Below are positions 2,946 to 58,115 of a DNA stretch of 59,778 nucleotides, one piece after another. A program made the translations under genes and the position numbers. The stretch comes from a virus (taxonomy: Duplodnaviria > Caudoviricetes), in IMG/VR virus record IMGVR_UViG_3300044624_002493, positions 1-59,778 of that record; one strand, 5' to 3'. How positions within the stretch are numbered: position 1 is the first letter of the stretch; every line of letters starts with the position of its first letter. The notes beneath the pieces were generated by a model, which saw nothing but the letters and a program-made list of their open reading frames with translations, made no database searches and had not been told where the DNA came from.

Positions 2946-3913
2946 TAGTTTTCAATTTTAATATTTTTAACCACGGGTGCAAACAAGGTTCTAATTTCTT
3001 CGGCGTATTTCATAACACCTTTGGGACTAAGCTCATCTTGATCTATAATGATATAATTTTGATCAGCCCAGACACGGTATTCAGTGCTTAAAATTGCCCG
3101 GATGAATTTATCTTGATACCATTCAACAATGGTATTTGGAGTGCTAGGCGGTAATACCAATATCCAACCTGCATATACTTTTAACCCAGGAACTACATCA
3201 CTCAATAATGGAACATTGGGCAACTGTTTTAATCGTGGCCCACCGGTCAATCCAATGGGCTTGACTTTGCCAGAATCGATCAATGTTTTAGCAATAGCCA
3301 CAGGCATGATACCAAATTCCGTGCCCGATTTACCGTCATAGCTGGCCACACTGGTTACTGCGGGCAACGGTCCGTTGAATTTAATATTTTGAACCAGTGC
3401 TGGATCAGCTTTGGTTTTAAGCATAATATATTCATAGGCCATTCTGTGTGCGCCGCCACCTACTGCAATGTTTATCTGACGTCCACTGTTTAGATATTGT
3501 ACAAATTCTTGTGGAGTGTTGACTGAACTTTTAACACTGGCTACCAACACCAATGGACTTTTGCCCAAGGTTATCACTGGTTTAAAACTGTTGTATTCAA
3601 ACTTTTTTAAATCACGTTGCCAGATGTCGTTGGTAACAAACAAACTCATATGACTGGGCACCATTAAATGCAGGCCGTCGCTGGGTGCTGTCATAAAGGC
3701 ATTGCTGGCCACAGCAGCATCAGCGCCAGGTTTTGTTTCAATTATAAATGTGGTGCCTGGATTTTGTTTCATAACAATTTCAGATGCTTTTCTAAATGAA
3801 ATTTCGTTTCCACTTCCGGGAGCAAATCCAATAAGAGTTTGTACTGGTTTGGATGGTTCCCAAGCAAATGCCAAAACAGGAGCCAACAGTAATACTGCTA
3901 ATAATTTTTTCAT
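2945..3913 (-). CDS. Tripartite tricarboxylate transporter substrate-binding protein (Bug/TctC family)
   Basis: Signal peptide MKKLLAVLLLAPVLAFA then WEPSKPV..LIGFAPG, ETKPGA, APSDG, PNVP; AAGGA SD. Start placed at 3913. Confidence 0.85.
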   Translation of the reverse strand: MKKLLAVLLLAPVLAFAWEPSKPVQTLIGFAPGSGNEISFRKASEIVMKQNPGTTFIIETKPGADAAVASNAFMTAPSDGLHLMVPSHMSLFVTNDIWQRDLKKFEYNSFKPVITLGKSPLVLVASVKSSVNTPQEFVQYLNSGRQINIAVGGGAHRMAYEYIMLKTKADPALVQNIKFNGPLPAVTSVASYDGKSGTEFGIMPVAIAKTLIDSGKVKPIGLTGGPRLKQLPNVPLLSDVVPGLKVYAGWILVLPPSTPNTIVEWYQDKFIRAILSTEYRVWADQNYIIIDQDELSPKGVMKYAEEIRTLFAPVVKNIKIEN

Positions 3914-15458: not shown

Positions 15459-18077
15459 TTAAACTGCAGAATTGTCACTTACATAACTCCAGCGGCTGTT
15501 TGTGGTGTCCCAAAATGCTAATCTTCCGCCCGATGTTGGGCTGTTAGAAACTGATGCAATTGCACCTGTGGAACCAGTGATAGCGGTCAATGCACTGGCC
15601 GTGAACACAGATACTGTAAAAATAGCTGGATTAACAATTATAACATTGCCATATGCATTATAATTGCTCGAAGTGGACAAAGTGGTAAATCCTCCAGTGC
15701 CTGGAAAACTAAAACCAATGTTAAAACGTTCAATGTTAGAGGTACCGACACCACTACCTTCAATGTTGCCTGTGGTTGATATGTATCCTGTTCGAACATT
15801 ACCACTAACAACATTGCCAGTGGTGCTTATTAGTCCAGTGCTTGTAAATCCGCCACCTGTAATTGTGCCAGATGCAGAGAATACATTTGCCGTAACAACA
15901 TTGGCGCCGGTGATGTCGCCACCTACTCCGCCAGCGATGACCAAACTGTTTGCAGTCAACACATTGCCAGCAGCACTGATAAATCCAATAGAAGTAATAT
16001 TGCCGGTCATTGACAAATTACCAGCTTGGAATGTGCCAATGTTTGAAACACTGTAACCCATGCCATCCATGTTGGCAGTCAGCACCCCGGTGAATGCACC
16101 AGTGGCACCTGTTGATCCTGTTAATCCAGAGGCACCGGTTGCACCTATGGTTCCTTGTATACCACTTGCTCCAGTAGCACCTATGGTTCCTTGTGGTCCA
16201 GTACTACCAGTTAAACCAGTAGCTCCATCAAATCCAGTGGCTCCAATGCCAGTTGCGCCAGTCAATCCAGTTGCACCGGACCCAGTGGCTCCGGTCAGTC
16301 CGCTAGCTCCTTGCAAGCCCGCAATGGAAAAGTTCCAACTGTTGCCGGTATATCCATTGCCCGCAGTGCTTACAATATCTGCGTCAATCCAAAAATCAGT
16401 GCCCGATGCCAATACCAATTGACCTTCTGCCCAATAGACGTAGGTGCCGCTGTCAATTACTCTTACGCGATCACCTACAATATATGCAGTGTTAGCAGTA
16501 TTGACATTGGTAACAAATGCAAGTGTCGCTGGTGCTGATAGTGTTTTTGTTGTTGAACTTGTTAATCCGGCATATCCTGGTCCAGTAATGGCTTGTCCTG
16601 TAGCTCCAGTCAATCCAGTGGCACCCTGCAATCCAACTACACTGAACTTCCAATCATCATAATAACCAGAGCCACTGATTAGTTGCGGATCTATCACTAG
16701 GGTGGTTCCGCTGATTGATTGAATAATACCATCTATGAAAGCATCTTCGTCGAGTGTGGCACTGGCACGAATTCGCATGTTGGTGAAGTACGCACTTAAA
16801 TTGGTATTAAATGTTGTGGTAAATGTTCTATTAGAAGCCAGGGTTATTTCTACATTTGATAAACTGTTGAGCGCATATCCTAGGCCTGTGGCACCAGACA
16901 GTCCACTGGCACCTGTGGCGCCTTGGTTACCCTGTAGTGTAAAATTCCATGGACCTGGTTGCGACCCTGATCCTGACAAGGTATCAACTATCAATGTCAA
17001 ACTGGTGCCGCTGAAACTGGAGATTATACCTTCTAAAAATATGGTTGGTCCAACACCTTGCAGAGCTCGAACTCGTACACCACCGGTATAAGCAGACTGG
17101 GTGGATGCAGTCAAATTGGTAGTAAAGGTCACTAGGCCTAGGTTCATAGCCACAGTGGTGGATGATTGTAAAGTGTATCCGGGTCCAGTGGCCCCAGTTA
17201 ACCCTGTGGCTCCTGTTAAACCACTTGCTCCTGTGGCACCAATCAGTCCAGGATCACCTTGTGGTCCTTGAATACCGTCTGGTCCGGTGGCGCCCCGTAG
17301 GCCAATAATACCACTTGCACCTGTAGCACCAATTCCGGTGGCGCCTTGTAAACCAGTGGCACCAACAAAGCCTGTTAGACCAGGAGTACCGGTTGCACCC
17401 TGAAATCCAGTGGTGCCTTGTAAGCCAGTAGCTCCAGTTAGTCCACTTGCTCCGGTGGCGCCTGGACTCACTCCGGTGAGTAAACTACCGTTACCAATAA
17501 AATATGGAGCAGTTACATTGCCAGCAACACTGAGATTTGCTAGCGTACCAACGGTGGTCAAACTACTAAACAACACATTACTGCTTAAGGTGTTTCCGGT
17601 TATGTTTGAAGCATTACTGCTGGTCACAATACCAGTTAACAAACTACCGTTACCAAGAACATAGTTGCCGGTCACATTGCCAGTCACGTTGACATTGCCT
17701 GTGACACTGAGATTTGCCAAGTTTCCAACGGTGGTCAAACTACTGAATAGCACATTGCTGCTCAATGTGTTACCAATCAACAAACTAGCAGCCGATTGAC
17801 TTTGTAGGCCGGTTAATAAACTACCATTGCCCAAGAAAAATTCGCTGGTGCTTACGTTGCCAGAAACTGATACTGATGTCAGCGTACCTACCGAAGTTAT
17901 TGATGGTTGAGCATTGTTTGTAACTGTTGCAGCAGTCTGCGCTGTGATTGCAGTTGTAGCAGTACCAGCAGCATTAGCATAAGGTGGTACAGCACTGGAT
18001 AAAGTTGAAAAGTTAGCATCCAGCTCACTTAGCGGAATGTTACCTGATTGATTGGCAAACGTATATGGTACTGACAT
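15459..18077 (-). CDS. Collagen-like tail fiber protein
   Basis: Interrupted G-X-Y (GATG) tracts and GNGSLLTG repeats. Confidence 0.8.
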
Positions 18078-22216: not shown

Positions 22217-24751
22217 TTATAGTTCAGTTTGCAGTATGGTCAATTCAACCGTGATAGCCACAGTGTTTCCACTGTTGTTGGTAATGGCCACTGGAATATT
22301 AGTGTTGGGCGGTGTTTCATCGTTGTAACAAACCACGCCTGGGCTCATCAATATGGTTTGATTACCTGTGGTAATTACTTCAGCTAGTACACCAGCACCC
22401 GGGTTTGGATCATTGCCTTGAGTACGACTTGCGTCGGCAGTTCTTGCTGCATCACTGGTATAAATTCTAACCCAAGCAGAATCTGTGGTGGATATTTTGT
22501 ATAAATTATATCCTTTGTATCCAATAATTGTTGCGTTAGCGGTAGCTGCATTGCCTAAACTACCAGTACTTACATTAGCTGTAGTTCTGCTAGTTGCGCC
22601 AACACCAGTGGCTCCAGTTGGGCCAGTGGCTCCAGTTGGTCCGCCACTAGGACCAGTCGCACCAGTGAATCCAGTTGAGCCAACACCACCTGCTCCTGTT
22701 GCGCCGGTTGGGCCGGTAGGGCCAGTTGCGCCAACACCGCCAGGACCGGTTGCTCCGGTTGCTCCTATAGGACCGCCACTTGGACCAGTTGCTCCCTGTG
22801 GGCCAGTTGCTCCAGTTGTGCCTGCGCCAGTTGCGCCTGTGGTACCTGTTCCAGTTGCTCCTGTGATACCAGTTGCTCCCTGTGGGCCAGTTGCTCCAGT
22901 TGTGCCTGCGCCAGTTGCGCCTGTGGTACCTGTTCCAGTTGCTCCTGTGATACCAGTTGCTCCCTGTGGGCCAGTTGCTCCCTGTGGGCCAGTTGCTCCA
23001 ATACCACCACTACCACCGGATATACCGGTTAAGAAAGCACCGTTACCTACAAAGTAATTTCCAGTAACATTACCAATGGCAGAAACATTTTGAGCAAAAG
23101 AAATATTGCTGGTAAAGTTAATGTTTCCAGCTACGTTTGGACTATTGTAAAAAGTAACATTGTTTGAATAAAGATTAAAACTAAATCCAGGACCACTACC
23201 TATGGTCACATAGCTACTGGTTATGTCAATATCAGATGATCCACCACCGGCTAGATATATTCCATTTGACTGATTTAGTATGTTTAATTTTTGACCACTT
23301 TGACCAGAGATGTAACTGCCAACTTGAACTCCGGGTACTGTGGTACTGCTAGAATTTAAATTAACTGCACCAGTGACTGATAAATTTGCAGTGGATATAT
23401 TAGCAGTATTACTGATGCTGTAACCTTGACCATTGATGTTACCAGTCATGTCTCCGTTTAGTACACCAGTGCCAGTTGCACCTTGCAGGCCAGTTGCTCC
23501 TACAGGACCGCCACTTGGTCCAGTTGCACCGGTAGGGCCAGTTGCGCCTACGCCAGTTGCGCCTGCGGTGCCAGTAGCACCAGTGAGACCAGTTGCTCCT
23601 GTAATACCAGTTGCACCGGCAGGGCCAGTTGCGCCTACGCCAGTTGCTCCAGTTGTACCTGCGCCAGTTGCGCCTGCGGTGCCAGTAGCACCAGTGAGAC
23701 CAGTAGTACCAGTAAGTCCAGTTGCACCATTAGCACCATTGGCGCCATTGACCCCGGATACTCCGTCAAGTCCAGCTGGCCCAGTTGCACCAGTTAATCC
23801 TGTAGATCCATTAGTACCTGCTGTGCCAGTTGCACCAGTTAACCCTGTTGTGCCTGTTGCACCTTGAAGGCCGGTTGTGCCAGTGGCGCCAGTAAGACCT
23901 GTTGCTCCAGTGGCACCTGCGCCTCCTGCAACAACCACGCCAGTTAAAAATGCACCATTGCCTAAGAAGTAATCGCCAGATACATTTCCAGTGGTAGTAA
24001 TATCACCAGCAATAGCAGTATTGGCTGTGACCACTTCTTGTCCATCAACCTGAAGTCCGCCAGTAGAACCTTCATTGATAACCACGTTGCCAAGATAAAT
24101 TGAACTGTTGCTGAGGTACAGATCTTTCCAGAAATTATCCACGTTACCTAGACTGTAGATAGCGTTTCCGTAAGGAATAAGATTGGCCACAATGCCACCT
24201 TCGGCATAGGCAACAACATTGGCATTGCTATAAGCAGCCGGAATTCCAGCCATGGTAGATGCATTACCAAAGAAATAAGCACCTGTGATGTTGCCACTGG
24301 AATTAACTATTCCGGTAGTTATTAAATTTCCTGCGTTTACATTCCCGGTGGCAGAAACCGATCCGCTTACACGTATACCTTGATCTGTGAAAGTGGCTAC
24401 GTTGGCAGTGCCAGCCACAGTGACCAGCACATTACCGCCCGACGATGGGATAGTTACATTTGTTGTGCCAAAGTTGATACTAGGAGTAGTGATGTTGGCA
24501 ATTTGAGTAACCTGGGCCCAGATCACACTGCTTCCGTCATAGTTAGCAAAACAATAGTAAAAATAGGTACTGTCAAAGGCATACATGCCGGCCACGTCAC
24601 CAATGCTGCCTACCAAAGTCGGTGGCGGTGATGATTGTGCTCGTGCGTATAATTCGCTAAAATTGCTGTTAGTTTTTTGAAAACTAGTGCGTATAGGATC
24701 GCCTTGCCCGTCGTTGGGTGAAGTGCCTACGTTGATTATTTGTTGTGCCAT
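22217..24751 (-). CDS. Collagen-like tail fiber protein
   Basis: N-terminal [22 protein letters not shown] anchor motif; two long G-X-Y tracts. Confidence 0.82.
22785..22970. repeat. 84-bp tandem duplication inside the collagen tract
   Basis: Identical units start at 22785 and 22869, with a partial unit at 22953. Confidence 0.75.
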
Positions 24752-38847: not shown

Positions 38848-39909
38848 TTACTCTTTTTTGCCAATATATTCGTGACTATAGCAAACACGGTTTGCATCTC
38901 TTAGAGCAATTTGAGCATTTCCACCGTAGCCGGGCATGGCCCTGATCGTGCCGTCTTTGAGTAGATAACTACCTTTTCGACTTTTCTTGTTAGTACTAGT
39001 GGCTCGCCACAATGGTGATTTTTCTCTGTGTTCACCAAAACTAGGATGGGCAGTTTTGCTAAAGTATCGCATGCCCTTGCTGACATACATTTCAGCAATG
39101 GCGTCACTGAACCGTGTACCTATACCCATGCCTTGAAACTCTGGGAGTATAACAGTTCTATGCCCGCGCCAGTACGAATGAATATCTCTATTGGTAGAAT
39201 GTATTGCGGCATGAAATGCAATAGGTTTGTCACCAAGCAAGCCCACATAGCAATGAACACTACGACTCATGCGGGTATCTAGATAGTGATACTTAGAAAA
39301 GTATCGCCACATTTCTGGACTTGTGCCGCGGATGGTGAGTGTAAGTTCTGGTCTGGTCCCCAGTCGAAAGGGTGACCTCCGATTATCTAATACCTGTAGG
39401 TCGGTATCGTACACCCATTCTGGATCTAACCAGTCAATGATATCTCTGTGGCAACTGGCAATGTATAACGGCTCAGTGGTGCCACGTTGATCATAATACT
39501 TACGCACACTATATGCAAGACTTTTGGCAGTGTCTCGGTCTACTACACTGGTAAATTCATCTATCTTGTTGATTCCTTGATCCAAACACATGGCCATTTC
39601 AAAGCGGTGATGCTCACCATTGCTTAAGGTATGTGGTGGCCGGAACCAAGTTGGGATACTACGCAAACCACAGGCCAATAGTAACTCTTCCCCACGCTCA
39701 GGAGTAGAGAAGTTTTCAATAACTGAGTTATAAAATTCAATTTTGGGTTGACCGTGCTCGCCTAGACCACGCAAGATAGTGCTTTTACCACTGCCGCTTG
39801 TACCAACAATCAATACAATACCATCTTGGGGAAGCTCGGGTATTACTACCTTGGCCTCCTTGTAGTCAGCAATGTCGTATTTTCGTTTAATTTCTTCTAG
39901 GTAACTCAT
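38848..39909 (-). CDS. ABC-type ATPase fused to a GNAT acetyltransferase-like domain
   Basis: GTSGSGKST, LSNGE signature, IDEFTSVVDR, ASCH; C-terminal FSKYHYL and RTVILPEFQGMGIG (acyl-CoA binding motif). Confidence 0.85.
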   Translation of the reverse strand: MSYLEEIKRKYDIADYKEAKVVIPELPQDGIVLIVGTSGSGKSTILRGLGEHGQPKIEFYNSVIENFSTPERGEELLLACGLRSIPTWFRPPHTLSNGEHHRFEMAMCLDQGINKIDEFTSVVDRDTAKSLAYSVRKYYDQRGTTEPLYIASCHRDIIDWLDPEWVYDTDLQVLDNRRSPFRLGTRPELTLTIRGTSPEMWRYFSKYHYLDTRMSRSVHCYVGLLGDKPIAFHAAIHSTNRDIHSYWRGHRTVILPEFQGMGIGTRFSDAIAEMYVSKGMRYFSKTAHPSFGEHREKSPLWRATSTNKKSRKGSYLLKDGTIRAMPGYGGNAQIALRDANRVCYSHEYIGKKE

Positions 39910-40463: not shown

Positions 40464-41537
40464 TATACTAGTCCTTTCAAGGCAGGTTTAACGCTATCAC
40501 ACACATTATTACGCCCGTCACCATCGGGCAAAATACCCAGTCCGTGTCCTTTGGTGGGTAGGGTTAATTTGCCGCCGTGTAACTTATACATCTCACGCAT
40601 AAACTTGCTCATACCATCTGGAGCAGACCAGTTACCTACTGCAAAAGCCCATTGATCTTTGGCCATTTTATGCACCACATGACTATCGTTAAATGTTCGA
40701 GCCACTCCATCACGCAGGACTTCAATCATCCAATCCTTGGGCTGATTTACTGTGAGTTCGGTATTAAGACTTGCCATCTGCATAAGCCCAATGAACACGC
40801 CTTGGTCGATTTCATCTTGATTAGGAAACACTGTGCGAATTGCTTTGAGAATGTTGTTAAGCGTTTTGCCCGACGGGGTCTTGTTTCATACATTTGATAG
40901 AACTGTCAAAGTGGCTATACCAATAAAAATTTGGCCCACACTTGCCTGGGCTTTCTCGATGACTTTTTTCTTGCAAATCAACTTCATTGGCATCAAATTG
41001 ATCTTGCAGTTTGCGAGCTGTTAATACTTCCCTGTCTTCACTGCCTTTGGTAAACAAGTGCAAACGAATACGATGTAGGTCTGGTTTGCCAATTTTTTTA
41101 ATACCAGAGTCATTAAGAATTTCAAATGCTTCGCTGGCAAAACGATCGTTGTCGGTTTCAACATAACAAGCAGGCACCTCAGTATAACCCAGGATCCACA
41201 TGGCCAGCATGCGATGTTGACCATCATAGGCATAGTAACGACTTGGGAATTTGCTCTTGGGCAGTCTTACGCAACTTGCAGCACCAACAATTCTTGGATC
41301 AAATTTACGAATAATATTAAGAACGTGTTTAACAATTACGTCACGTTGAACTTCGTAATCAATCCAAATTGAATCAAAATTTAATAGTGCAAGTCCGATT
41401 GGAAATCCGTATCCGGTAGATTTAATACGAGTTTGAATACGAGCAAGTTCTTTGTCTGTGAAACCGTGATTCTCTCTGAGATCTGCAAGAGTTTCTTTGG
41501 CAACATCTGACAAGAGGCGCGATAATCGCTTAGTCAT
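40463..41537 (-). pseudogene. DGQHR/ParB-like protein split by a +1 frameshift (pseudogene, programmed shift or sequence error)
   Basis: IDYEVQRD...FDPR...YDGQHR in 40857-41537. Removing one base of the 4-G run at 40875-40878 joins it in frame (QDPSGKTLNNILKAIRTVFPNQDE) to ORF 40463-40831. Confidence 0.7.
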
Positions 41538-41581
41538 AATAGTCCTTAGGTAAAATGGTTAAATTTTATACTGCAAACTAT

Positions 41582-41610
41582 ATTATAAAAGAAAACAACT
41601 TTTTGGTCAA
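41582..41610 (-). promoter_or_regulatory. sigma70-like promoter
   Basis: TTGACC-N17-TATAAT upstream of the DGQHR gene. Confidence 0.65.
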
Positions 41611-41611
41611 C

Positions 41612-42148
41612 CTACTTTAACAAGTCTAAAAGTTCTTGATACGTAAGGGTTTTTATTAGAAATCTGTCCAAATGTGTTTGCAGAGTTTGGTGAGTAATGT
41701 GGAATTGTCCTTCTCCAACATTGCCTTTGTGTTGTTTATCACCGTAACCAATGGACGAATCAATCTCTGCGGGCAGTATGGTAAAGATCTTGACCACGTC
41801 ATCAAAGAACATACCGTAATACAATTGATCAAATTCTGCACGTTTGACCTGCTGTATGTTGCAAGCAAATTGATTGGTTGCCCATTGACCGAATGCCACT
41901 CGACGATCTGATGCAATTTCACGTGATAGGATTTCTAAAATTTTATCTTCGTTTAGCTTTTCCAATGATCGTTGCACTGTGCTAAACTTGACTTCAATTC
42001 GTTGACCGGTGGGTGTGTTCCAAAGATCATGGTGACGACTGCGAGGCTTATCAAACTGATAAAGTCGTTTGATCATAATCTCGGCTAGTCTTCCTAACCG
42101 GCGAGTGTTGATTGTAAAAATTATATCACGTAATTGTTCTGGAGTCAT
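41612..42148 (-). CDS. Putative PD-(D/E)xK restriction-like endonuclease
   Basis: GRLAE helix, HDL, IEVKFS pattern. Confidence 0.55.
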   Translation of the reverse strand: MTPEQLRDIIFTINTRRLGRLAEIMIKRLYQFDKPRSRHHDLWNTPTGQRIEVKFSTVQRSLEKLNEDKILEILSREIASDRRVAFGQWATNQFACNIQQVKRAEFDQLYYGMFFDDVVKIFTILPAEIDSSIGYGDKQHKGNVGEGQFHITHQTLQTHLDRFLIKTLTYQELLDLLK

Positions 42149-42164
42149 AAAAGTTAATAAAAAT

Positions 42165-42368
42165 GCTCTACCCCTCCCGGCGGTCCTGTTGTTCTATACT
42201 CATCAGGTTGGGCGATAGCCCTCAGCTGAGACTAGTACGAAAGAACTCATCCGCTACACGACGGAGGGTGCTATCGTGTTGCCAACGCCAGTTAGGTTAG
42301 ACTGGGACCACCCGTGGCAGTCACGCCACTATCATGCGGGTCGCACTATCCGCTGACTAGGCGGTCAA
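42165..42368 (-). ncRNA. Candidate GC-rich multi-stem ncRNA with possible pseudoknot
   Basis: About 200 nt intergenic, GC-rich versus its flanks, at least six stems; G-U pairs favour the minus strand. Confidence 0.6.
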
Positions 42369-42371
42369 AAA

Positions 42372-42707
42372 CTACACAATAACCGACTGACCAACTTCAA
42401 GTCGGTTACTATAAAAACATTCACCACGACTACGAATTAAGTCTGCAAATCCTTGCGGATCACGCCTGAACATATCTTGAATGTTCTCTTCGGTTATGCC
42501 TTCCTCTACTGCAAAATAATAGATCTCATAGTGCCGTTGAGTATTAAATTGTGCTCGTAGCCTTAAATGGAACGGATTAGCGTAAGCGTGTCTAGGACTA
42601 TCTCGTCCTTGCAACTTTTCCCACATAACCCGTTGATCATCAGCAGTAATGTCGGCCACATATTCTAAACCTTCGTTGCACCACATGACAATAAACGTAT
42701 GATCCAT
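42372..42707 (-). CDS. Hypothetical phage protein
   Basis: MWCNEGLE, LRAQFN.QRHYEIY motifs; coupled to the upstream gene. Confidence 0.7.
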   Translation of the reverse strand: MDHTFIVMWCNEGLEYVADITADDQRVMWEKLQGRDSPRHAYANPFHLRLRAQFNTQRHYEIYYFAVEEGITEENIQDMFRRDPQGFADLIRSRGECFYSNRLEVGQSVIV

Positions 42708-42898
42708 TACTGTAATACATTGCCTTCGATGCCGTCGAACACACTACATCCACGAGCTTCTGCTTCCTCCATCAATTTGGCTGTACTAGCATCGCAAGCA
42801 ATTTCAAACAACTCATCAATCTCATCTTGGGTCAAGTAGTATTCTGGAATCTGTCCTGCTAATACTGCTTCAGCTACCATTAAACGATCCTCGGTCAT
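42707..42898 (-). CDS. Small acidic hypothetical protein
   Basis: 63 aa ORF with AGGAG SD. Confidence 0.6.
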   Translation of the reverse strand: MTEDRLMVAEAVLAGQIPEYYLTQDEIDELFEIACDASTAKLMEEAEARGCSVFDGIEGNVLQ

Positions 42899-43433
42899 TG
42901 AGTTTCTCCTGTAGTTCGTTAAAAAATTCTATGGCCAAATCAAATGCCACTAATGCTTCATCTACAATGTCTGTGGACAGTTTGGCGTCCAGGGCTTTGA
43001 TCAACGCCGGACGATCTTCAAATCCGTAGCACTTGCCACTACCCGGTACTTTCTTGGCAATAATTTTGCCACCGTACATATCGCCCATGTGCCTGACATA
43101 TACATGTGCAAGAATTTGACTTTTGTCAGTGTAGTACAGATGTACAATGCGTTCACACCACTTTTTAATACTGGGTAGGGGTTCTTCGGTGACATTATAC
43201 CCCAATTCTTTAAGATCTTCACGCATGTAATCAGCACGTTTGATATCCGGTAAATCGTGTAACAGGTGACTGATTTCGGCAAAATATTCAATGTTGCGAT
43301 ATACCAATTCCATCTGTTGTAAAAACACAGCATAGTCATCTGCGGTTATATTACCATGTAACATGTACTGAACAAAGGGCGTGGCTTCGGCGGCTCTGTG
43401 TTTTTCGTTGGTGTAGTTGCGTAAGATGCTCAT
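42870..43433 (-). CDS. Heme oxygenase (biliverdin-producing type)
   Basis: LR..T...H..AE, AHVYVRHMGDMYGGKII, EALVAF. Confidence 0.88.
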   Translation of the reverse strand: MSILRNYTNEKHRAAEATPFVQYMLHGNITADDYAVFLQQMELVYRNIEYFAEISHLLHDLPDIKRADYMREDLKELGYNVTEEPLPSIKKWCERIVHLYYTDKSQILAHVYVRHMGDMYGGKIIAKKVPGSGKCYGFEDRPALIKALDAKLSTDIVDEALVAFDLAIEFFNELQEKLNDRGSFNGS

Positions 43434-43594
43434 TCCTGTTCTACCGCCCAAAATCTAAAATCAAAGCTGTCTTGCAAACAGGTAAATTCATCACCTGTGG
43501 TATTTTTGTATCGCACCCAGGCCTTGTGATCCACAATATAGCGTTCTATCACATAGAAAAAACGTGAGTGCCCGTCGGTATAAACTATAGCCAT
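43430..43594 (-). CDS. Small hypothetical protein
   Basis: MAIVYTDGH..., TAATG-coupled start. Confidence 0.5.
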   Translation of the reverse strand: MAIVYTDGHSRFFYVIERYIVDHKAWVRYKNTTGDEFTCLQDSFDFRFWAVEQE

Positions 43595-50850: not shown

Positions 50851-53800
50851 ATGACTGTTTATACAACTACTGCCACTGGTACTGATAGTACCGGTAACAT
50901 ACTCATAGTAAGTTCAACTGCCAACATGGCAATCGGTTTGCCAATATCGTTTTCAGGCACTGTTTTTGGCGGAATTGTTGCGGGGGATACCTATTACATT
51001 CTTAGCATTGTAAGTGGAACTCAAATTACTCTGAGCGGAACTGCCGGAGGAGCCGTGGTAGGATTAACCACTGCCACTGGATCAATGACTGCCACTTTCC
51101 AGAGTGGCGGACAACAAGTCATTGATGTTGGCGCTAGTGCCAATGATGGATCTGGTGAGCCGCTAAGAAACGCATTCACATCAATAAACACCAATTTTGA
51201 CCAGATTTGGGCATCAGGCCCAGTGGGGTCAAACGTGTTTATCGAAGACAATTCGATCAAAACTTTAAACACCAATGGTAATTTGGTGCTGGCACCAAAT
51301 GGTATAGCCAAAGTCGTCAGTAATGTAGATGTAGTGCCAAACAGTGCAAACATCAGAAATCTTGGTAGTAGTAACCTGCGTTGGAACACAGTATATGCAC
51401 AAAATTTAGATGTCACCGGCAGTGTAACCTACGAAAATTTAGCAGTCACAGGCAATGTTTCTGTAGGCGGATTTGTCAGTGTTGCAGGCAATGTCACAGG
51501 CAATTACATTTACGGTAATGGTGCATTTTTAACTGGCATTTCTGGTGGTGGAGGTGGTGGAATTGGAGCAACTGGATTAACAGGTGCAACTGGACAAGCA
51601 GGAGCTACTGGACCTGAAGGTACTCATGGAGCCACAGGTGGCGTTGGAGCTACCGGTACAGCAGGTAGTCAAGGCGTACAAGGCTATGTTGGAGCAACCG
51701 GCGCTACTGGTCTAACTGGAGCAACTGGTCTCAACGGTTTAAATGGATCCACGGGCCCACAGGGTGCCACTGGTGTTGGTGCAACTGGAGCCACAGGTCC
51801 TGCAGGTAGTGCTGGAACAGCAGGAGCTACAGGAGCAAGTGGTATTGAAGGACACCAAGGTGCTACTGGACCCACCGGTGCCACAGGTGCAAGTGGTCCA
51901 CAAGGCTATACAGGCGCAACTGGTACCGTAGGACAAACAGGATCTACAGGACTTACCGGAGCAACAGGTGAAATTGGAGCCACGGGTGTTGCAGGAACAA
52001 ACGGAGCCACCGGAGCAAGTGGTATTGCTGGCACAAATGGCGCAACTGGTGCGAGTGGCGTACAAGGTGACATAGGTGCTACTGGTGCGTCAGGCATACA
52101 AGGAACTGTTGGAGCCACAGGAGCAAGCGGAACAAACGGAGCCACTGGCGCAAGTGGTCCTCAAGGATTAACCGGCGGTACAGGACCAGTTGGACAGACC
52201 GGAGCTACCGGACTTACTGGAGCCACAGGTCAAACAGGTAACACAGGTGACATTGGTGCCACAGGTGCAAGTGGCGTACAGGGATTAACAGGATCCACTG
52301 GCTTTCAAGGAGCTACTGGAGAATTTGGAGCAACTGGTGCAAGTGGCATACAGGGATTAACTGGATCCACAGGTGGAGTTGGTGCCACAGGTGCAAGTGG
52401 GCTACAAGGAGCCACAGGCGTACAAGGCCTTAGTGGAGCAACAGGCGCTACTGGGTTGGCTGGCGCTACTGGTAGTGTTGGAGCCACAGGTGGAGTTGGA
52501 GCAACTGGAACACAAGGAACAATTGGTGCAACAGGTGCAAGTGGTATTCAAGGAACTGCTGGAGATCAAGGTGCCACTGGTGTAACTGGTGATATTGGCG
52601 CAACTGGTGCTACAGGAGTGACTGGTAGTACAGGACCACAAGGTGAAATTGGAGCTACTGGTGCAAGTGGCGTACAGGGATTAACAGGATCCACTGGACA
52701 AACAGGCGCTACAGGTGCCAGTGGCACACAAGGAGCCACAGGTGTACAAGGACTTACTGGCGCAACAGGAGCCACTGGTGTCCAGGGCGAAATAGGCGCC
52801 ACAGGTGCCTCAGGATTAGATGGTGCCACAGGTGCCACTGGTTTAATAGGTGCCACTGGTGTACCCGGTACTTCGGTAGCAATCACCGGATCTGTTGCCA
52901 ACGTAAATGACACCTATCCAGGCGGCGGCCCAAACGATCCAGATGGACTTCTTGATTATTATTTCCCTACTGCCGTTGCCGGTGACGGAGTAGTTGATCA
53001 AAACACTGGAAACTTATGGGTTTATGATGGCGCACAATGGGATGATGTTGGACAAATTGTTGGACCAGACGGTGCAACAGGTCTCACAGGTGCCACAGGC
53101 GTTGGAGCCACAGGCCCACAAGGAGCCACAGGCACAATTGGAGCCACTGGTGCCACGGGTGTACAGGGCGAAATCGGAGCCACTGGTCTTACAGGTGATG
53201 TGGGTGCCACAGGTGCGTCAGGCATACAGGGAACCATAGGTGCCACAGGTGCGTCAGGCATACAGGGAACCATAGGTGCCACTGGTGCTACTGGTGTGCA
53301 GGGACTCGAGGGTGCCACAGGTGTACAGGGCGAAATAGGTGCCACAGGCTTACAAGGCAACATAGGTGCCACTGGTGCGTCAGGCATACAGGGCGAAATT
53401 GGAGCAACTGGTGCGTCAGGTGTACAAGGTGATATTGGAGCCACTGGAGCAAGTGGCCTAACAGGAAGCACAGGACCACAAGGTGAAATTGGTGCCACTG
53501 GCCTACAGGGTGAAATTGGAGCAACTGGTGCAAGTGGCGTACAGGGATTCGATGGCGCAACAGGAGCAAGTGGATTAAATGGTGCTACTGGCCTAACTGG
53601 TAGTACAGGACCACAAGGAACAATTGGTGCCACTGGAGCAAGTGGTGTACAGGGATTAACTGGAGCCACTGGCGTACAAGGATTTGAGGGTGCTACTGGT
53701 GTACAAGGCGATATTGGTTCTACAGGCGTACAGGGATTTGATGGAGCCACTGGACCACAAGGTGAAATTGGAGCCACTGGAGTACAGGGCAATGTAGGTG

Positions 53801-55053
53801 CCACTGGTGCCACTGGATACAATGGTGCAACTGGTGCAACTGGCTTGCCAGGCATTGTTGAATCACCGACTGCACCATCAAACACCGACGTATTATGGTT
53901 GGATACCGGTGCTTCTGGCATAGTAGGTCAAGGAGCAACCGGACTTACTGGAGCAACTGGCGCATTTGGCGGCACACTGACCGGCAATATCAACGGCGCT
54001 GGATACAGCATTAGCAATGTTAATTCTTATACTGGAAATACCGTGTCGGTATCTGGTAACATTACTTCGGGCGACTTCCTAACAAGCGGCCAAATAACAT
54101 CTACCGGAGCAGGTAATACAGCTACCAATGGTGGACAGATTTTCCTAAACGGTGCAACCCTCAATAGAATTGATTGGAATACCAACGGTACTGGAGCTCC
54201 AGAATACACTACAAGAAGTGTAGGAGCCAAAGTTGTGCTTTATCCATCCATAGGTGGCAGTGCCGCCGATTATGCATTGGGCGTTGAAGCAGGTGCATTA
54301 TGGTCAGGTATTCCGGGCAACGACGGAGGACAGTTCTTTAAATGGTACGGAGGAAATATTCCAGTAGCAAGTTTATCAGGCACAGGTGTTTTCTCAGCCA
54401 CAGGCAATGTAACAGGTGGAAATATCTTAACTGGTGGTTTGATCTCAGCCACAGGCAACATCTCAGCTAACAACCTGTCACTCGCTGGCAATGTTACCAG
54501 CAACATTAGCTTTACTGGTGTCGACATTACTATAAACAATGCTCCAGGTGGCAACGAAGGTGCTGAAATTAAGTGGGCTTTACCAGCGGTGGCTAATACA
54601 TCTTTAAGCGGTACTTTAGTACAAGATGTCTACACAAACGGCATGCGGTTCTTTGAATCAGGTGGCAACACTCGTGGCCTATACATGGATCTGGGCAATG
54701 CACCTAATGTATCTACTACAGCAGTGGGCTACAGAGATATTCCGCAGGTCTCATTCACTGCCAACACAACCATTGCCACCACAGACGCTGGTAGACATTA
54801 TTACTCAACCCTGAGCACAGGAAATGTGCTGACCATTGCCAACAACGCAAGCCAAGGTTTCCAAGTTGGTGCCGCTATCTCAATCATCAATCAAGGCTCA
54901 GGCAATATTACTGTGGCACAGGGTTCTGGCGTTACCTTGTATCTTGCTGGCAATGCCACATCGGGCAACAGAAGCGTGGCCACATTTGGTATGGCCACCT
55001 TGATCAAAGTAGCAACAGACACTTGGTTCATCAACGGCACCGGAGTTAGTTAA
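50851..55053 (+). CDS. Long collagen-like tail fiber protein
   Basis: 1400 aa with several hundred residues of G-X-Y; internal [12 protein letters not shown] anchor motif; C-terminal [15 protein letters not shown]; TAAATA at 50819-50824. Confidence 0.85.
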
Positions 55054-55832: not shown

Positions 55833-58115
55833 ATGAGCCAGTTAAAATACTATAATTCACTTACCTCCGCCTGGGAACCAGCCATAGTTGGGGCCCAAGG
55901 CGCTACTGGAGCGACTGGCCCGCAGGGCAATATAGGCGCTACAGGTGCTAGTGGCATACAGGGATTCGATGGAGCAACCGGACCGCAGGGATTTGATGGC
56001 GCTACGGGTCCAATCGGCGATGCTGGCGCAACAGGCCCGCAGGGATTTGATGGCGCAACAGGACCACAAGGCGATGCTGGCGCAACAGGCCCACAAGGCC
56101 AAATTGGTTCTACGGGTGCAAGTGGTGTACAAGGACTTACAGGCGCTACTGGACAATTTGGTGCCACAGGATCACAAGGATTTGAAGGCAGTACTGGTCC
56201 ACAGGGATTCACAGGATCAACTGGACCCATTGGTATCACAGGAGCCACAGGACTTACTGGAGCCACAGGCGGACAAGGCGTACAAGGATACGATGGTTCC
56301 ACAGGAGCCACAGGCCCACAGGGCTCCACTGGTGTTGGTTTACAAGGCTCCACCGGTGCTCAAGGTGCCACTGGACTTGCCGGGCAAGATGGTGGCAGTA
56401 GTACCTACTATAATTATGCAGCGTTAACTACTGCTACGTCAGGTGACCCCGGTAATGGTAATATTCTGTGGAACACTGCTATACAGACCAATGCTTCCCA
56501 ACTTAACATTGACCATTTAACCACAACCAATGTGGACATTGATGTATTTTTAGCCTTGTTAAAAATCAATGATTCGTTGATCGTACAAGATTCTACAAGC
56601 AGTACCAACTATCAGCGTTGGACTATCAATGGCACACCAACTTCGCCTGGAGACAACCTTTATTGGACAGTGCCGGTGTCCTTACAGAGCAGTGCTGGAA
56701 CAGGAACAACTGGTTTTTCCAATGGTCAAAGCCTATTACTGATTGTTATCAGTACTGGTCAACAAGGTGCCACTGGTTTAGCTGGCGCAACAGGCCTAAC
56801 TGGCGCTACAGGACAATTTGGAGCTACAGGTGCTAGTGGACTAACTGGTGCCACTGGATTTGATGGTGCCACTGGAGCAAGTGGTATTACTGGATTGACT
56901 GGTAGTACTGGTGTGCAAGGATTTGTAGGAGCCACTGGAGCTCAAGGCGATAAAGGTGCCACAGGTGTTGCTGGTGCTACAGGAGCATTTGATGGCAATT
57001 TAACTGCTAATATTGATGGCAACGGCTATAACATTAGCAATGTCAATGTTGTTACTACTAATATTATTGCTAACCCAAAAACTATCACAGCCAATGTACT
57101 GGTGCCAAATGATGTAAATGCACTAGTGATTGGTCCAGTGGTGTTTAGTAATGGTGCTATGGCTATAGTGCCCAGCAGTTCAACGTTTGATGTGTTTGAT
57201 CCAGCTGCGCTGGGTGGCACTATGACTGCCAATATCAACGGTGCTGGTTACAATATTAGTAATGTTTCATTTATATCAGCGACTGGTAATATATCCGGTG
57301 ATTATTTTGTTGGTAATGGTAGTTTATTAACTGGAATAGCGTCGGGCAATGCCAACGCCATTGTCAATGGCAACAGCAATGTGACCATAAACACAGCCAA
57401 CGGCAATGTAACAGTGGCCATAGATGGACAGGGCAATGTGGTAGAAATCGGTCAAGGCAGTTTGAATGTAGCTGGTACTATTAGCAATCCCAAAACCATC
57501 ACAGCCAACGTTTATGTGCCAGACAATGTTAATGCACTCATGATCGGACCTGTGAGTTTTGCCAATGGTGCTATGGCAGTGGTGCCTGCCTCATCCACAT
57601 TTGATGTGTTTGATCCAGCTGCGCTGGGTGGCACTATGACCAGTAATATTGATGGTGCTGGTTACGGTATCAGCAACATAGGAAGTTTGAGCTCAACTGG
57701 CAATATTTCTGGCGTGGGTGCTTTGAACATCGAAGGTGTTTTGAGCAATCCCAAAACCATCACAGCCAATGTTTATGTGCCGGACAGCGTAAATGCACTC
57801 ATGATCGGACCAGTGACATTTGCCAACGGTAGCCAGGCCATAGTGCCAGGAAACAGCACTTTTGACATATTTGATCCAGCTGCCCTGGGCGGCACAATGA
57901 CCAGTAATATTGATGGCGCTGGTTACAACATCAGCAATGTAAGCAATGTCAGCAGCAATTTAAACTTTGTTACCAACGGCATCAGTTTGTTGGCAAACCA
58001 AGTTACAGCAAATGTTACATTCCCTGCAAATTACAATGGAATGAGTGTGGGTCCGCTGACTGTGGCCACAGGAATAGCAGTTAATGTGGGCACAAACAAC
58101 TGGGTAATTTTATAA
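55833..58115 (+). CDS. Collagen-like fiber protein with repeated C-terminal modules
   Basis: G-X-Y tracts; three NPKTITANV...FDPAALGGTMT repeats; upstream TAAATA. Confidence 0.8.
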   Translation: MSQLKYYNSLTSAWEPAIVGAQGATGATGPQGNIGATGASGIQGFDGATGPQGFDGATGPIGDAGATGPQGFDGATGPQGDAGATGPQGQIGSTGASGVQGLTGATGQFGATGSQGFEGSTGPQGFTGSTGPIGITGATGLTGATGGQGVQGYDGSTGATGPQGSTGVGLQGSTGAQGATGLAGQDGGSSTYYNYAALTTATSGDPGNGNILWNTAIQTNASQLNIDHLTTTNVDIDVFLALLKINDSLIVQDSTSSTNYQRWTINGTPTSPGDNLYWTVPVSLQSSAGTGTTGFSNGQSLLLIVISTGQQGATGLAGATGLTGATGQFGATGASGLTGATGFDGATGASGITGLTGSTGVQGFVGATGAQGDKGATGVAGATGAFDGNLTANIDGNGYNISNVNVVTTNIIANPKTITANVLVPNDVNALVIGPVVFSNGAMAIVPSSSTFDVFDPAALGGTMTANINGAGYNISNVSFISATGNISGDYFVGNGSLLTGIASGNANAIVNGNSNVTINTANGNVTVAIDGQGNVVEIGQGSLNVAGTISNPKTITANVYVPDNVNALMIGPVSFANGAMAVVPASSTFDVFDPAALGGTMTSNIDGAGYGISNIGSLSSTGNISGVGALNIEGVLSNPKTITANVYVPDSVNALMIGPVTFANGSQAIVPGNSTFDIFDPAALGGTMTSNIDGAGYNISNVSNVSSNLNFVTNGISLLANQVTANVTFPANYNGMSVGPLTVATGIAVNVGTNNWVIL

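Follow-up and report, generated by a model that had tools for sequence, protein, structure and literature searches.

The DNA analysed here, referred to as the window, is the virus record IMGVR_UViG_3300044624_002493 of IMG/VR, 59,778 bases in length. CheckV estimates its completeness at 17%, and the complete genome is thus probably several times its size. The element of interest, flagged at 42165-42368, occupies a 223-nt gap on the minus strand between an upstream open reading frame (ORF) at 42372-42707 and a downstream ORF at 41612-42148, both encoded on the same strand. The upstream ORF encodes 111 amino acids (aa) and could be assigned to no family; the downstream ORF encodes 178 aa, and its sole Pfam match is DUF6998 (E 0.0017, 18.7 bits, under the curated cut-off of 27). 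A first-pass annotation made from the sequence had described the gap as a GC-rich, multi-stem RNA with pseudoknot potential lying upstream of a nuclease gene. The base composition agrees with this description, as the element has a GC content of 0.55-0.56 versus roughly 0.32-0.48 in its surroundings.

To describe the fold, an alignment of 24 members (A1), the window among them, was assembled, the structure was written from compensatory changes by eye and with mutual information, and a covariance model (R1) of 200 positions was built from the alignment and the structure. R1 finds a single match in the window, spanning model positions 1-200 of 200, in which all of the hairpins H1-H5, stem B and helix P are formed; this full-length membership is partly by construction, as the window is a seed sequence. 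Across the family, standard base pairs occupy 93.6% of the cells in the viral alignment and 93.5% in the metagenome alignment, against 73.4% and 73.6% in shuffles, of which 0 of 500 scored as high, and sliding the partner strands by 1-3 columns left only 31-45% paired. Covariation among homologues is seen as well: 29 of 41 pairs in the viral set and 30 of 41 in the metagenome set have changed on both sides. Fitting both alignments to the model works in favour of the structure; even so, the margin is wide.

The sequence of the flagged region by itself behaved differently in the proposed comparison with shuffled controls. The minimum free energy of its minus strand was -77 kcal/mol, versus -68.1 +/- 5.1 for dinucleotide shuffles (z -1.75; 12 of 200 as good), and the plus strand gave a z of -1.09. 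The comparison therefore failed for the single sequence and succeeded for the aligned family. A pairing of the 5' ACCGCC with GGUGGU in the minimum-energy structure was unsupported by relatives and was discarded.

Judged by these patterns of substitution, the flagged stretch is a genuine structured-RNA gene. Its predicted fold consists of the five hairpins H1-H5, followed by the long-range stem B, which encloses helix P, which in turn encloses a variable insert (Table 1). This predicted fold is unusually well supported.

Table 1. Predicted parts of the RNA gene, with coordinates in the window and sequences read on the minus strand.
Feature	Position	Strand	Remarks
Whole RNA gene, ~210 nt	42162..42371	-	R1 match 42162-42377, 131.6 bits, E 3.6e-51
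H1 hairpin ACCGC/GCGGA, 7-nt loop CUAGUCA	42349..42365	-	5/5 pairs changed on both sides; 94-96% of cells paired
H2 hairpin GUGCG-ACC-CGCAU	42334..42346	-	98.6-100% paired; 2 pairs changed on both sides
H3 hairpin GUGGC-GUGACU-GCCA(C)	42315..42329	-	5/5 pairs covary; 72-80% of cells paired
Near-invariant single-stranded segment GGGUGGUC	42306..42313	-	First GGU is the candidate partner of the H2 loop (PK1)
H4 hairpin CCAGU-CUAACCUA-ACUGG	42288..42305	-	Stem invariant in 47/47 and 64/64 sequences
H5 mini-hairpin CGU-UGGCAAC-ACG, 3-bp stem, 7-nt loop	42275..42287	-	Third pair CG in 42, UA in 5
Stem B, 5' strand	42263..42270	-	CCCUCC at 42263-42268 pairs with GGAGGG at 42172-42177
Helix P, 5' strand GCGG	42251..42254	-	Partner CCGC at 42180-42183
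Variable insert, 67 nt	42184..42250	-	GUUCU/AGAAC, GUACU/AGUAU, CUCAG-CUGA-[GGGC UAUC GCCC]-AAC-CUGAUGAG
3' strands: CCGC (helix P), CG, GGAGGGGUAG (stem B)	42168..42183	-	
Conserved 3' tail AGCAUU (family consensus RAGCA), then U-rich stretch	42162..42167	-	

The RNA gene starts just past the TAG stop codon of the upstream ORF (42372-42374), the end of which overlaps the first six bases of the R1 match, and it finishes with a conserved AGAGCAUU tail; 13 nt separate this tail from the ATG of the downstream ORF. Among the hairpins, H3 is the loosest, its low pairing figure being due in part to register shifts in the alignment. The stem of H4 was required by all search patterns used, while the ACC in its loop was kept in every member retrieved by a pattern that did not require it. 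The stem of H5 closes a loop with the family consensus UGGCAAY, and its third pair is U-A in the window and a few other members and C-G in most; two of the three new members obtained with an H5-free pattern have an altered loop, UGGCGAU, in which UGGC is kept, and the remaining one is mismatched within the H5 stem. Every pair of stem B has changed on both sides, and ~95% of cells are paired across most of its length. In the viral set, the second pair of helix P (GYGG/CCRC) reads C-G in 28 sequences and U-A in 13; in the metagenome set the counts are 40 and 16, and here the third and fourth pairs add the further types U-A and A-U; as read from the printed alignment, both C-G and U-A forms occur within close relatives. 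The insert varies in length from roughly 10 to 130 nt among relatives and is replaced by a 9-nt loop in the shortest member (L217), whose minimal core measures 162 nt including short flanks. For the variable inserts, aligned with MAFFT, no consensus structure was obtained from RNAalifold; by eye, a CUGA-hairpin-AAC module is kept in relatives, with stems that differ and stay complementary.

Beyond the helices, the family points to contacts of pseudoknot type, as had been anticipated for this element: a contact designated PK1 and a complementarity between the loops of H1 and H3. In the window, AGUCA of the H1 loop is complementary to UGACU of the H3 loop over five Watson-Crick pairs. At least four contiguous complementary bases were found in 21 of 25 distinct combinations of the two loops, compared with 34% when H3 loops were taken from other combinations and 36% when the letters of the H3 loop were shuffled, and the complementary words vary by clade and even exchange sides. 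PK1 would pair the ACC of the H2 loop with the first GGU of the near-invariant GGGUGGUY; members with AUC in the loop have GGAU instead. Of the 45 sequences of the viral set, 2 show this compensatory change, as do 7 of the 62 in the metagenome set, and 100% of cells are paired, with none broken. The second GGU of GGGUGGUC could pair either with the ACC of the H4 loop (candidate contact PK2, which never varies) or with the ACC at 42182-42184. The stretch of ~45 nt formed by GGGUGGUY, H4 and H5 is almost invariant.

Against this fold, about half of the helices listed in the first-pass annotation proved right. The letters and coordinates were correct: on the minus strand, GGUGGUCC occupies 42312-42305 and GGACCGCC occupies 42186-42179, and all listed pairings can be written on the sequence at the positions given. 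The proposed GUGGC/GCCAC is H3, which covaries. CCAGU/ACUGG is H4 of the fold, and as it is invariant in every member, covariation neither supports nor contradicts it. CCCUCC/GGAGGG, listed there as an alternative pairing, corresponds to stem B and is supported by the changes in all of its pairs. GUUCU-GUACU/AGUAU-AGAAC forms in the fold of the window's variable insert, and relatives carry other complementary stems in place of GGGC-UAUC-GCCC (a reading by eye, RNAalifold having given no consensus). The helix GGUGGUCC/GGACCGCC, which had been thought to close the domain, found no support: 89.4% of its cells are paired versus 89.2% in shuffles (264 of 500 reach the observed value), and no real covariation was seen. 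Its one informative substitution, G to A, breaks the pairing, yet is compensated in the H2 loop, and the helix competes with the covarying helix P (GCGG/CCGC) for the same cytosines. Two further proposals, UCCG/CGGA and ACACGA/UCGUGU, clash with the covarying helices B, P and H5, with which they overlap. More generally, a CGA/UCG pairing near the 5' strand of stem B, of which ACACGA/UCGUGU is one version, was rejected for its overlap with covarying H5, and on inspection it is absent from L009 and L011. The earlier reading did not contain H1, H2, H5, helix P, the H1-H3 loop complementarity or the pseudoknot of the H2 loop.

We then sought to learn about the distribution of the family. Core-derived patterns retrieved 55-65 viral contigs per scan and 46 distinct versions including that of the window. 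With R1, 47 matches were obtained in the window and 46 viral loci, exactly one per locus, and the 23 members of the viral set that are not seed sequences score 48-153 bits. A further 71 matches were found in the 100 metagenome loci scanned, out of at least 119 loci. The 14-mer TAGTGCGACCCGCA was less selective, yielding 84 stretches that are mostly chance, and the pattern AACTGGCGYTGGCAA gave many chance matches among the matches listed. The members have a length of ~150-250 nt. Of the phage records that carry the RNA, seven of seven checked contain one copy; five of these records are 89-100% complete, with sizes of 161-344 kb, and the complete or nearly complete genomes among those checked measure 172-344 kb. 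A 344-kb phage contig encodes a homologue of the 111-aa protein, followed by a clearly related element and then by a different gene. In the DNA runs X7 and X19, extra contigs match only the core at ~42274-42318 and then diverge, so several co-occurring lake phages appear to carry family members; in X19 the core had a depth of 15.5 versus ~3. The family has well over a hundred environmental representatives.

No match was found with the core patterns in prokaryotes, searched as one genome for each of 185,579 species. A looser pattern gave ten stretches in the same genomes, none of which matches R1 beyond the pattern itself; six of the ten were scored by R1 and reached at most 15.2 bits, compared with at least 48 for family members. 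A blastn search of 50,697 GenBank phage records with the window copy or a copy of the majority type returned no match. Rfam 15, whose 4227 models include RNase P, tmRNA, 5S, 6S, SRP, T-box, HDV, GOLLD, ROOL and manA, gave 0 matches over the whole window at the gathering thresholds and nothing on the element when 41900-42700 was searched at E<=10, and for the elements of seven other members only flanking tRNAs were matched at E<=5. These results bear out the statements of the first-pass annotation that the element is neither a tRNA nor a tmRNA (ARAGORN predicted 0 such genes in the whole window, and there was no tRNA-clan match on the element) and that it lacks RNase P hallmarks, no Rfam 15 family having matched even at E<=10. 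The literature searched contains no description of the family. An intergenic screen of IMG/VR reported 8,495 unnamed candidates of 29-151 nt (PMC10690425), which may include a piece of the present RNA. The family is thus absent from every catalogue or paper searched (Rfam 15, GenBank phage records and the literature), and within the collections searched it is confined to uncultured large phages of lakes and soils.

The genomic context was counted for 41 full-length viral copies. Twenty of them lie flush with a tRNA gene on the same strand, 17 having a tRNA no further than 30 nt away on the upstream side and 12 having one no further than 60 nt away on the downstream side, and in 25 of 41 a tRNA is found less than 1 kb away, every such tRNA being on the same strand. 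Where the tRNA is upstream, 5-6 nt (RAACGU) separate its encoded CCA from H1; where it is downstream, the tRNA begins a few nucleotides past the RAGCA tail. The RNA therefore sits in a 'tRNA slot' in about half of the loci and elsewhere, as in the window, after the stop codon of a protein gene. The downstream neighbours vary by locus; many are tRNA genes, and others are unrelated ORFs. Among 117 other family loci, 7 have the 111-aa gene upstream of the RNA and 0 have a homologue of the 178-aa protein. Three contigs (L002, L003 and L004, around ~2990-3005) encode homologues of both flanking genes, those of the 178-aa protein with 58-66% identity, and here the two genes abut or overlap, stop and start codons sharing bases, with no gap between them; R1 had 0 matches in these contigs, and no copy of the RNA was found elsewhere in the records, which are partial (20-32% complete). 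As the flanking genes abut without the RNA in these contigs, the RNA is an optional insert of ~220 nt at the site of the window.

Several loci show additional features around the RNA. Further conserved spacers of ~85-115 nt that are not tRNAs lie between the RNA and the nearest tRNA gene, either 84-97 nt after the RNA (L157, L218, L247, L144) or 108-116 nt before it (L200, L228, L229, L225, L244), and by eye they resemble other small structured RNAs in tRNA slots. Four loci of jumbo phages (L009, L011, L033 and L246) have the order tRNA-Gly, RNA, small ORF, and the N-terminus of the small ORF presumably resembles the omega subunit of RNA polymerase. In L005 (3638 onward) and L237, a cysteine-rich ORF lies past the RNA behind promoter-like hexamers; by eye it is possibly an HNH-type endonuclease, which may have a bearing on movement of the RNA between genome sites.

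With regard to transcription, no promoter-like site was found between the upstream ORF and the RNA. A near-consensus sigma-70-type promoter (TTGACC, 17-nt spacer, TATAAT; 11 of 12 positions matching) is located at 41610-41582 on the minus strand, between the stop codon of the 178-aa ORF, which it directly follows, and an ORF at 40857-41537. This position is an indication that a transcription unit finishes with the RNA and the 178-aa gene. In L008, where the 178-aa gene is missing, a similar promoter-like site directly follows the RNA. Neither a canonical intrinsic terminator nor a hairpin sequestering a start site was predicted at the 3' end of the RNA. In a lake metatranscriptome, two contigs of 151 nt with 100% identity and a depth of 2 span 42291-42568 and so reach from the upstream ORF into the RNA, of which they cover the 5' third. 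With these contigs from one RNA library, co-transcription with the upstream ORF is weakly hinted.

The RNA was compared with known classes, and on sequence grounds it belongs to none of them. Resemblances to 5S rRNA, the specificity domain of RNase P, T-box and HDV RNAs were presumed at first sight, and none is backed by Rfam. For the HDV ribozyme, we take the likeness to consist of a GC-rich core, a short hairpin with a loop that might pair with the GG after it, and a possible long-range helix between a GGUC run and the 3' part. The differences are that there is no 5' strand for the first helix, H5 being a self-contained covarying hairpin there, that the long-range helix from the GGUC run is unsupported, and that Rfam gives no match. 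The nested double pseudoknot of HDV-like topology was accordingly rejected: the nucleotides that follow H4 form the local hairpin H5, in which one pair has changed from C-G to U-A. A type III toxin-antitoxin RNA of ToxI-like kind was discarded: there are no tandem repeats in 41500-42800, and none of the 117 other loci has the neighbouring protein. A cis-regulatory leader (riboswitch or attenuator) was also set aside, as the downstream neighbours differ and no terminator or start-sequestering hairpin was predicted.

Among the small RNAs of phages, RNAC and RNAD of T4 are shorter, at 119-139 nt. They share with the present family the status of small non-tRNA RNAs tied to a phage tRNA region, and they differ in that blastn found no similarity in the GenBank phage records and in that the window copy lies outside a tRNA cluster. 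They are described as products of the phage tRNA gene cluster with unknown biological roles (PMC3014915). ROOL and GOLLD are phage-encoded, 'often near tRNA islands', and form nanocages (PMC12286853). The likeness extends to a highly structured, pseudoknot-rich fold, a tRNA-adjacent position and no known protein partner (PMC12286853). GOLLD and ROOL are 3-4 times longer (about 600-800 nt or more), they also occur in bacterial prophages, whereas the present family had 0 true matches in 185,579 prokaryote species, and the RNA of the window matches no Rfam model. By architecture, in particular the kissing loops, the closest known system is manA (RF01745, the accession given in the preprint), a short cyanophage RNA with several hairpins and loop-loop pairing (10.64898/2026.07.01.735769). 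In that preprint, manA RNAs of <200 nt form 8-, 10- and 60-mers through intermolecular kissing loops (10.64898/2026.07.01.735769). There, manA is described as a putative 5'-UTR element, while the present RNA is found in tRNA slots or after stop codons; the manA loops were shown to kiss between molecules, while those of the present RNA could do so within or between molecules. No manA model matched this RNA.

Taken as a whole, our results are best explained if the RNA of the window belongs to an uncatalogued family of knotted phage non-coding RNAs and is an independent product acting in trans, an explanation that we regard as probable, with appreciable room for doubt. Among the identities offered in the first-pass annotation, a new class of phage non-coding RNA is the best-fitting one. 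The RNA would act as a gene product in its own right and not as a regulator of the downstream gene. Within tRNA arrays, the enzymes that trim the flanking tRNAs would release it from long transcripts; in the window, it would be a stable 3' end, an internal piece or a cut product of the mRNA of the 111-aa gene. The knotted fold would provide stability and would display an invariant face to a partner conserved among hosts. Since the RNA is invariant across phages with different neighbours and GC contents, this partner is expected to be conserved across hosts, and the habit of residing in tRNA arrays indicates something in tRNA handling or translation as our best guess. The exposed UGGU and UGGC elements (UGGN) are complementary to the ACCA and GCCA 3' ends of tRNAs, and a pairing step between them is a speculation.

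A more specific proposal, which we consider possible and rather doubtful, is that the family represents a new functional class, either an RNA that binds tRNA 3' ends or a new ribozyme or self-assembling particle co-expressed with sets of tRNAs. In the tRNA 3'-end variant, the UGGN elements would capture ACCA and GCCA ends, so that tRNAs could be sensed, shielded or sequestered while the phage infects its host, perhaps as a counter to host defences that target tRNAs.

Several observations weigh against the explanation by an independent, trans-acting RNA. For 16 of the 41 copies, that of the window among them, the DNA examined shows no tRNA gene nearby, the window's own copy folds no better than its shuffles, and the depth-2 contigs of the metatranscriptome could be DNA carry-over. 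The covariation of PK1 depends on one clade together with L308, whose relative L265, judged close by eye and not from a tree, keeps ACC/GGGU. Part of the near-invariance of H4 and H5 follows from the searches themselves, since every pattern drew on this stretch, and when H5 was not required only 3 of 10 new loci were family members. Finally, the idea of tRNA-end binding relies on complementarities of 4 nt that never vary.

The loop complementarity that characterizes the family could also arise if the loops of H1 and H3 paired between molecules and built a ring or cage, as in manA, ROOL and GOLLD. This complementarity covaries and swaps sides, and covariation cannot separate intramolecular from intermolecular pairing. 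The manA RNAs provide a precedent for intermolecular kissing loops (10.64898/2026.07.01.735769), and ROOL and GOLLD are a precedent for phage-encoded RNAs, often near tRNA islands, that form nanocages (PMC12286853). We consider such a particle unlikely: H1 and H3 are adjacent and have stems of about the same length, 5 bp each, an arrangement that in our judgement favours an intramolecular, side-by-side kiss; in one clade both loops read GUAGCA and share just two complementary bases; and neither sequence nor model comparison links the RNA to manA, ROOL or GOLLD. A purely cis-acting element, such as a 3'-end stabiliser, an exonuclease roadblock or a processing or termination signal, would agree with the position of the RNA directly past the stop codon of the 111-aa gene in the window's subfamily (7 of 117 loci), with the promoter-like hexamers read from the sequence after the RNA in L005, L008 and L237, and with the U-run at the end of many copies. 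It is nonetheless quite unlikely, as the kissing loops, the pseudoknot and the invariant core of 45 nt far exceed the needs of a stabilising hairpin, no intrinsic terminator is predicted at the end of the RNA, and inside tRNA arrays there is no mRNA to protect.

A ribozyme, which was among the identities first suggested, could be a self-cleaving aid in the cutting of tRNA-array transcripts or a trans-acting catalyst. The complex pseudoknotted fold with many invariant unpaired nucleotides is reminiscent of known ribozymes, the RNA adjoins the encoded CCA end of the upstream tRNA with 5-6 nt between them, and part of the invariant core presumably resembles part of the HDV ribozyme core, a resemblance taken as a lead only. 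Catalysis appears quite unlikely to us, given that the Rfam ribozyme families gave no match at E<=10 or E<=5 and that the strand needed for an HDV-type first helix is occupied by the covarying local hairpin H5. The suggestion that the RNA serves the downstream PD-(D/E)XK-like nuclease as a partner, guide or antitoxin has only their adjacency in the window in its favour, where the RNA ends 13 nt before the ATG. It is contradicted and extremely improbable: the nuclease has a homologue in none of the 117 other family loci, the three contigs that encode a nuclease homologue (58-66% identity) have no RNA upstream and none elsewhere in those partial records, no repeats lie near the element, and the DUF6998 match of the nuclease-like protein falls below the curated cut-off (18.7 vs 27 bits). 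For the annotation of the window, this removes a false lead, as the RNA is not part of a nuclease system.

The explanation by an uncatalogued, trans-acting phage RNA bears on a wider question. Large conserved RNAs with tertiary contacts and invariant unpaired cores have mostly proved to be ribozymes, riboswitches or RNA machines. To our knowledge, few RNAs of this kind still lack an assigned function, and those that do are much sought. The position of the present RNA is interchangeable with that of a tRNA, a 'tRNA slot' habit common to this family, GOLLD, ROOL and T4 RNAC and RNAD, whose roles stayed open for decades. Being short and alignable and having a minimal core, the RNA is tractable for structural work and for asking why phages co-express folded RNAs with tRNAs.

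Other genes of the window were recorded in the course of this analysis. It encodes a DNA polymerase and collagen-like tail-fibre genes, including at least four large genes with collagen repeats (15459-18077, 22217-24751, 50851-55053 and 55833-58115), one of which encodes 1,400 aa. A heme oxygenase (Pfam PF01126, E 2e-16), an auxiliary metabolic gene, is encoded at 42870-43451 on the minus strand, two genes upstream of the RNA. A protein of 353 aa encoded at 38848-39909 on the minus strand gave weak matches to a P-loop NTPase in its N-terminus and to a GNAT acetyltransferase in its C-terminus, all below the cut-off, and may be an unusual fusion.

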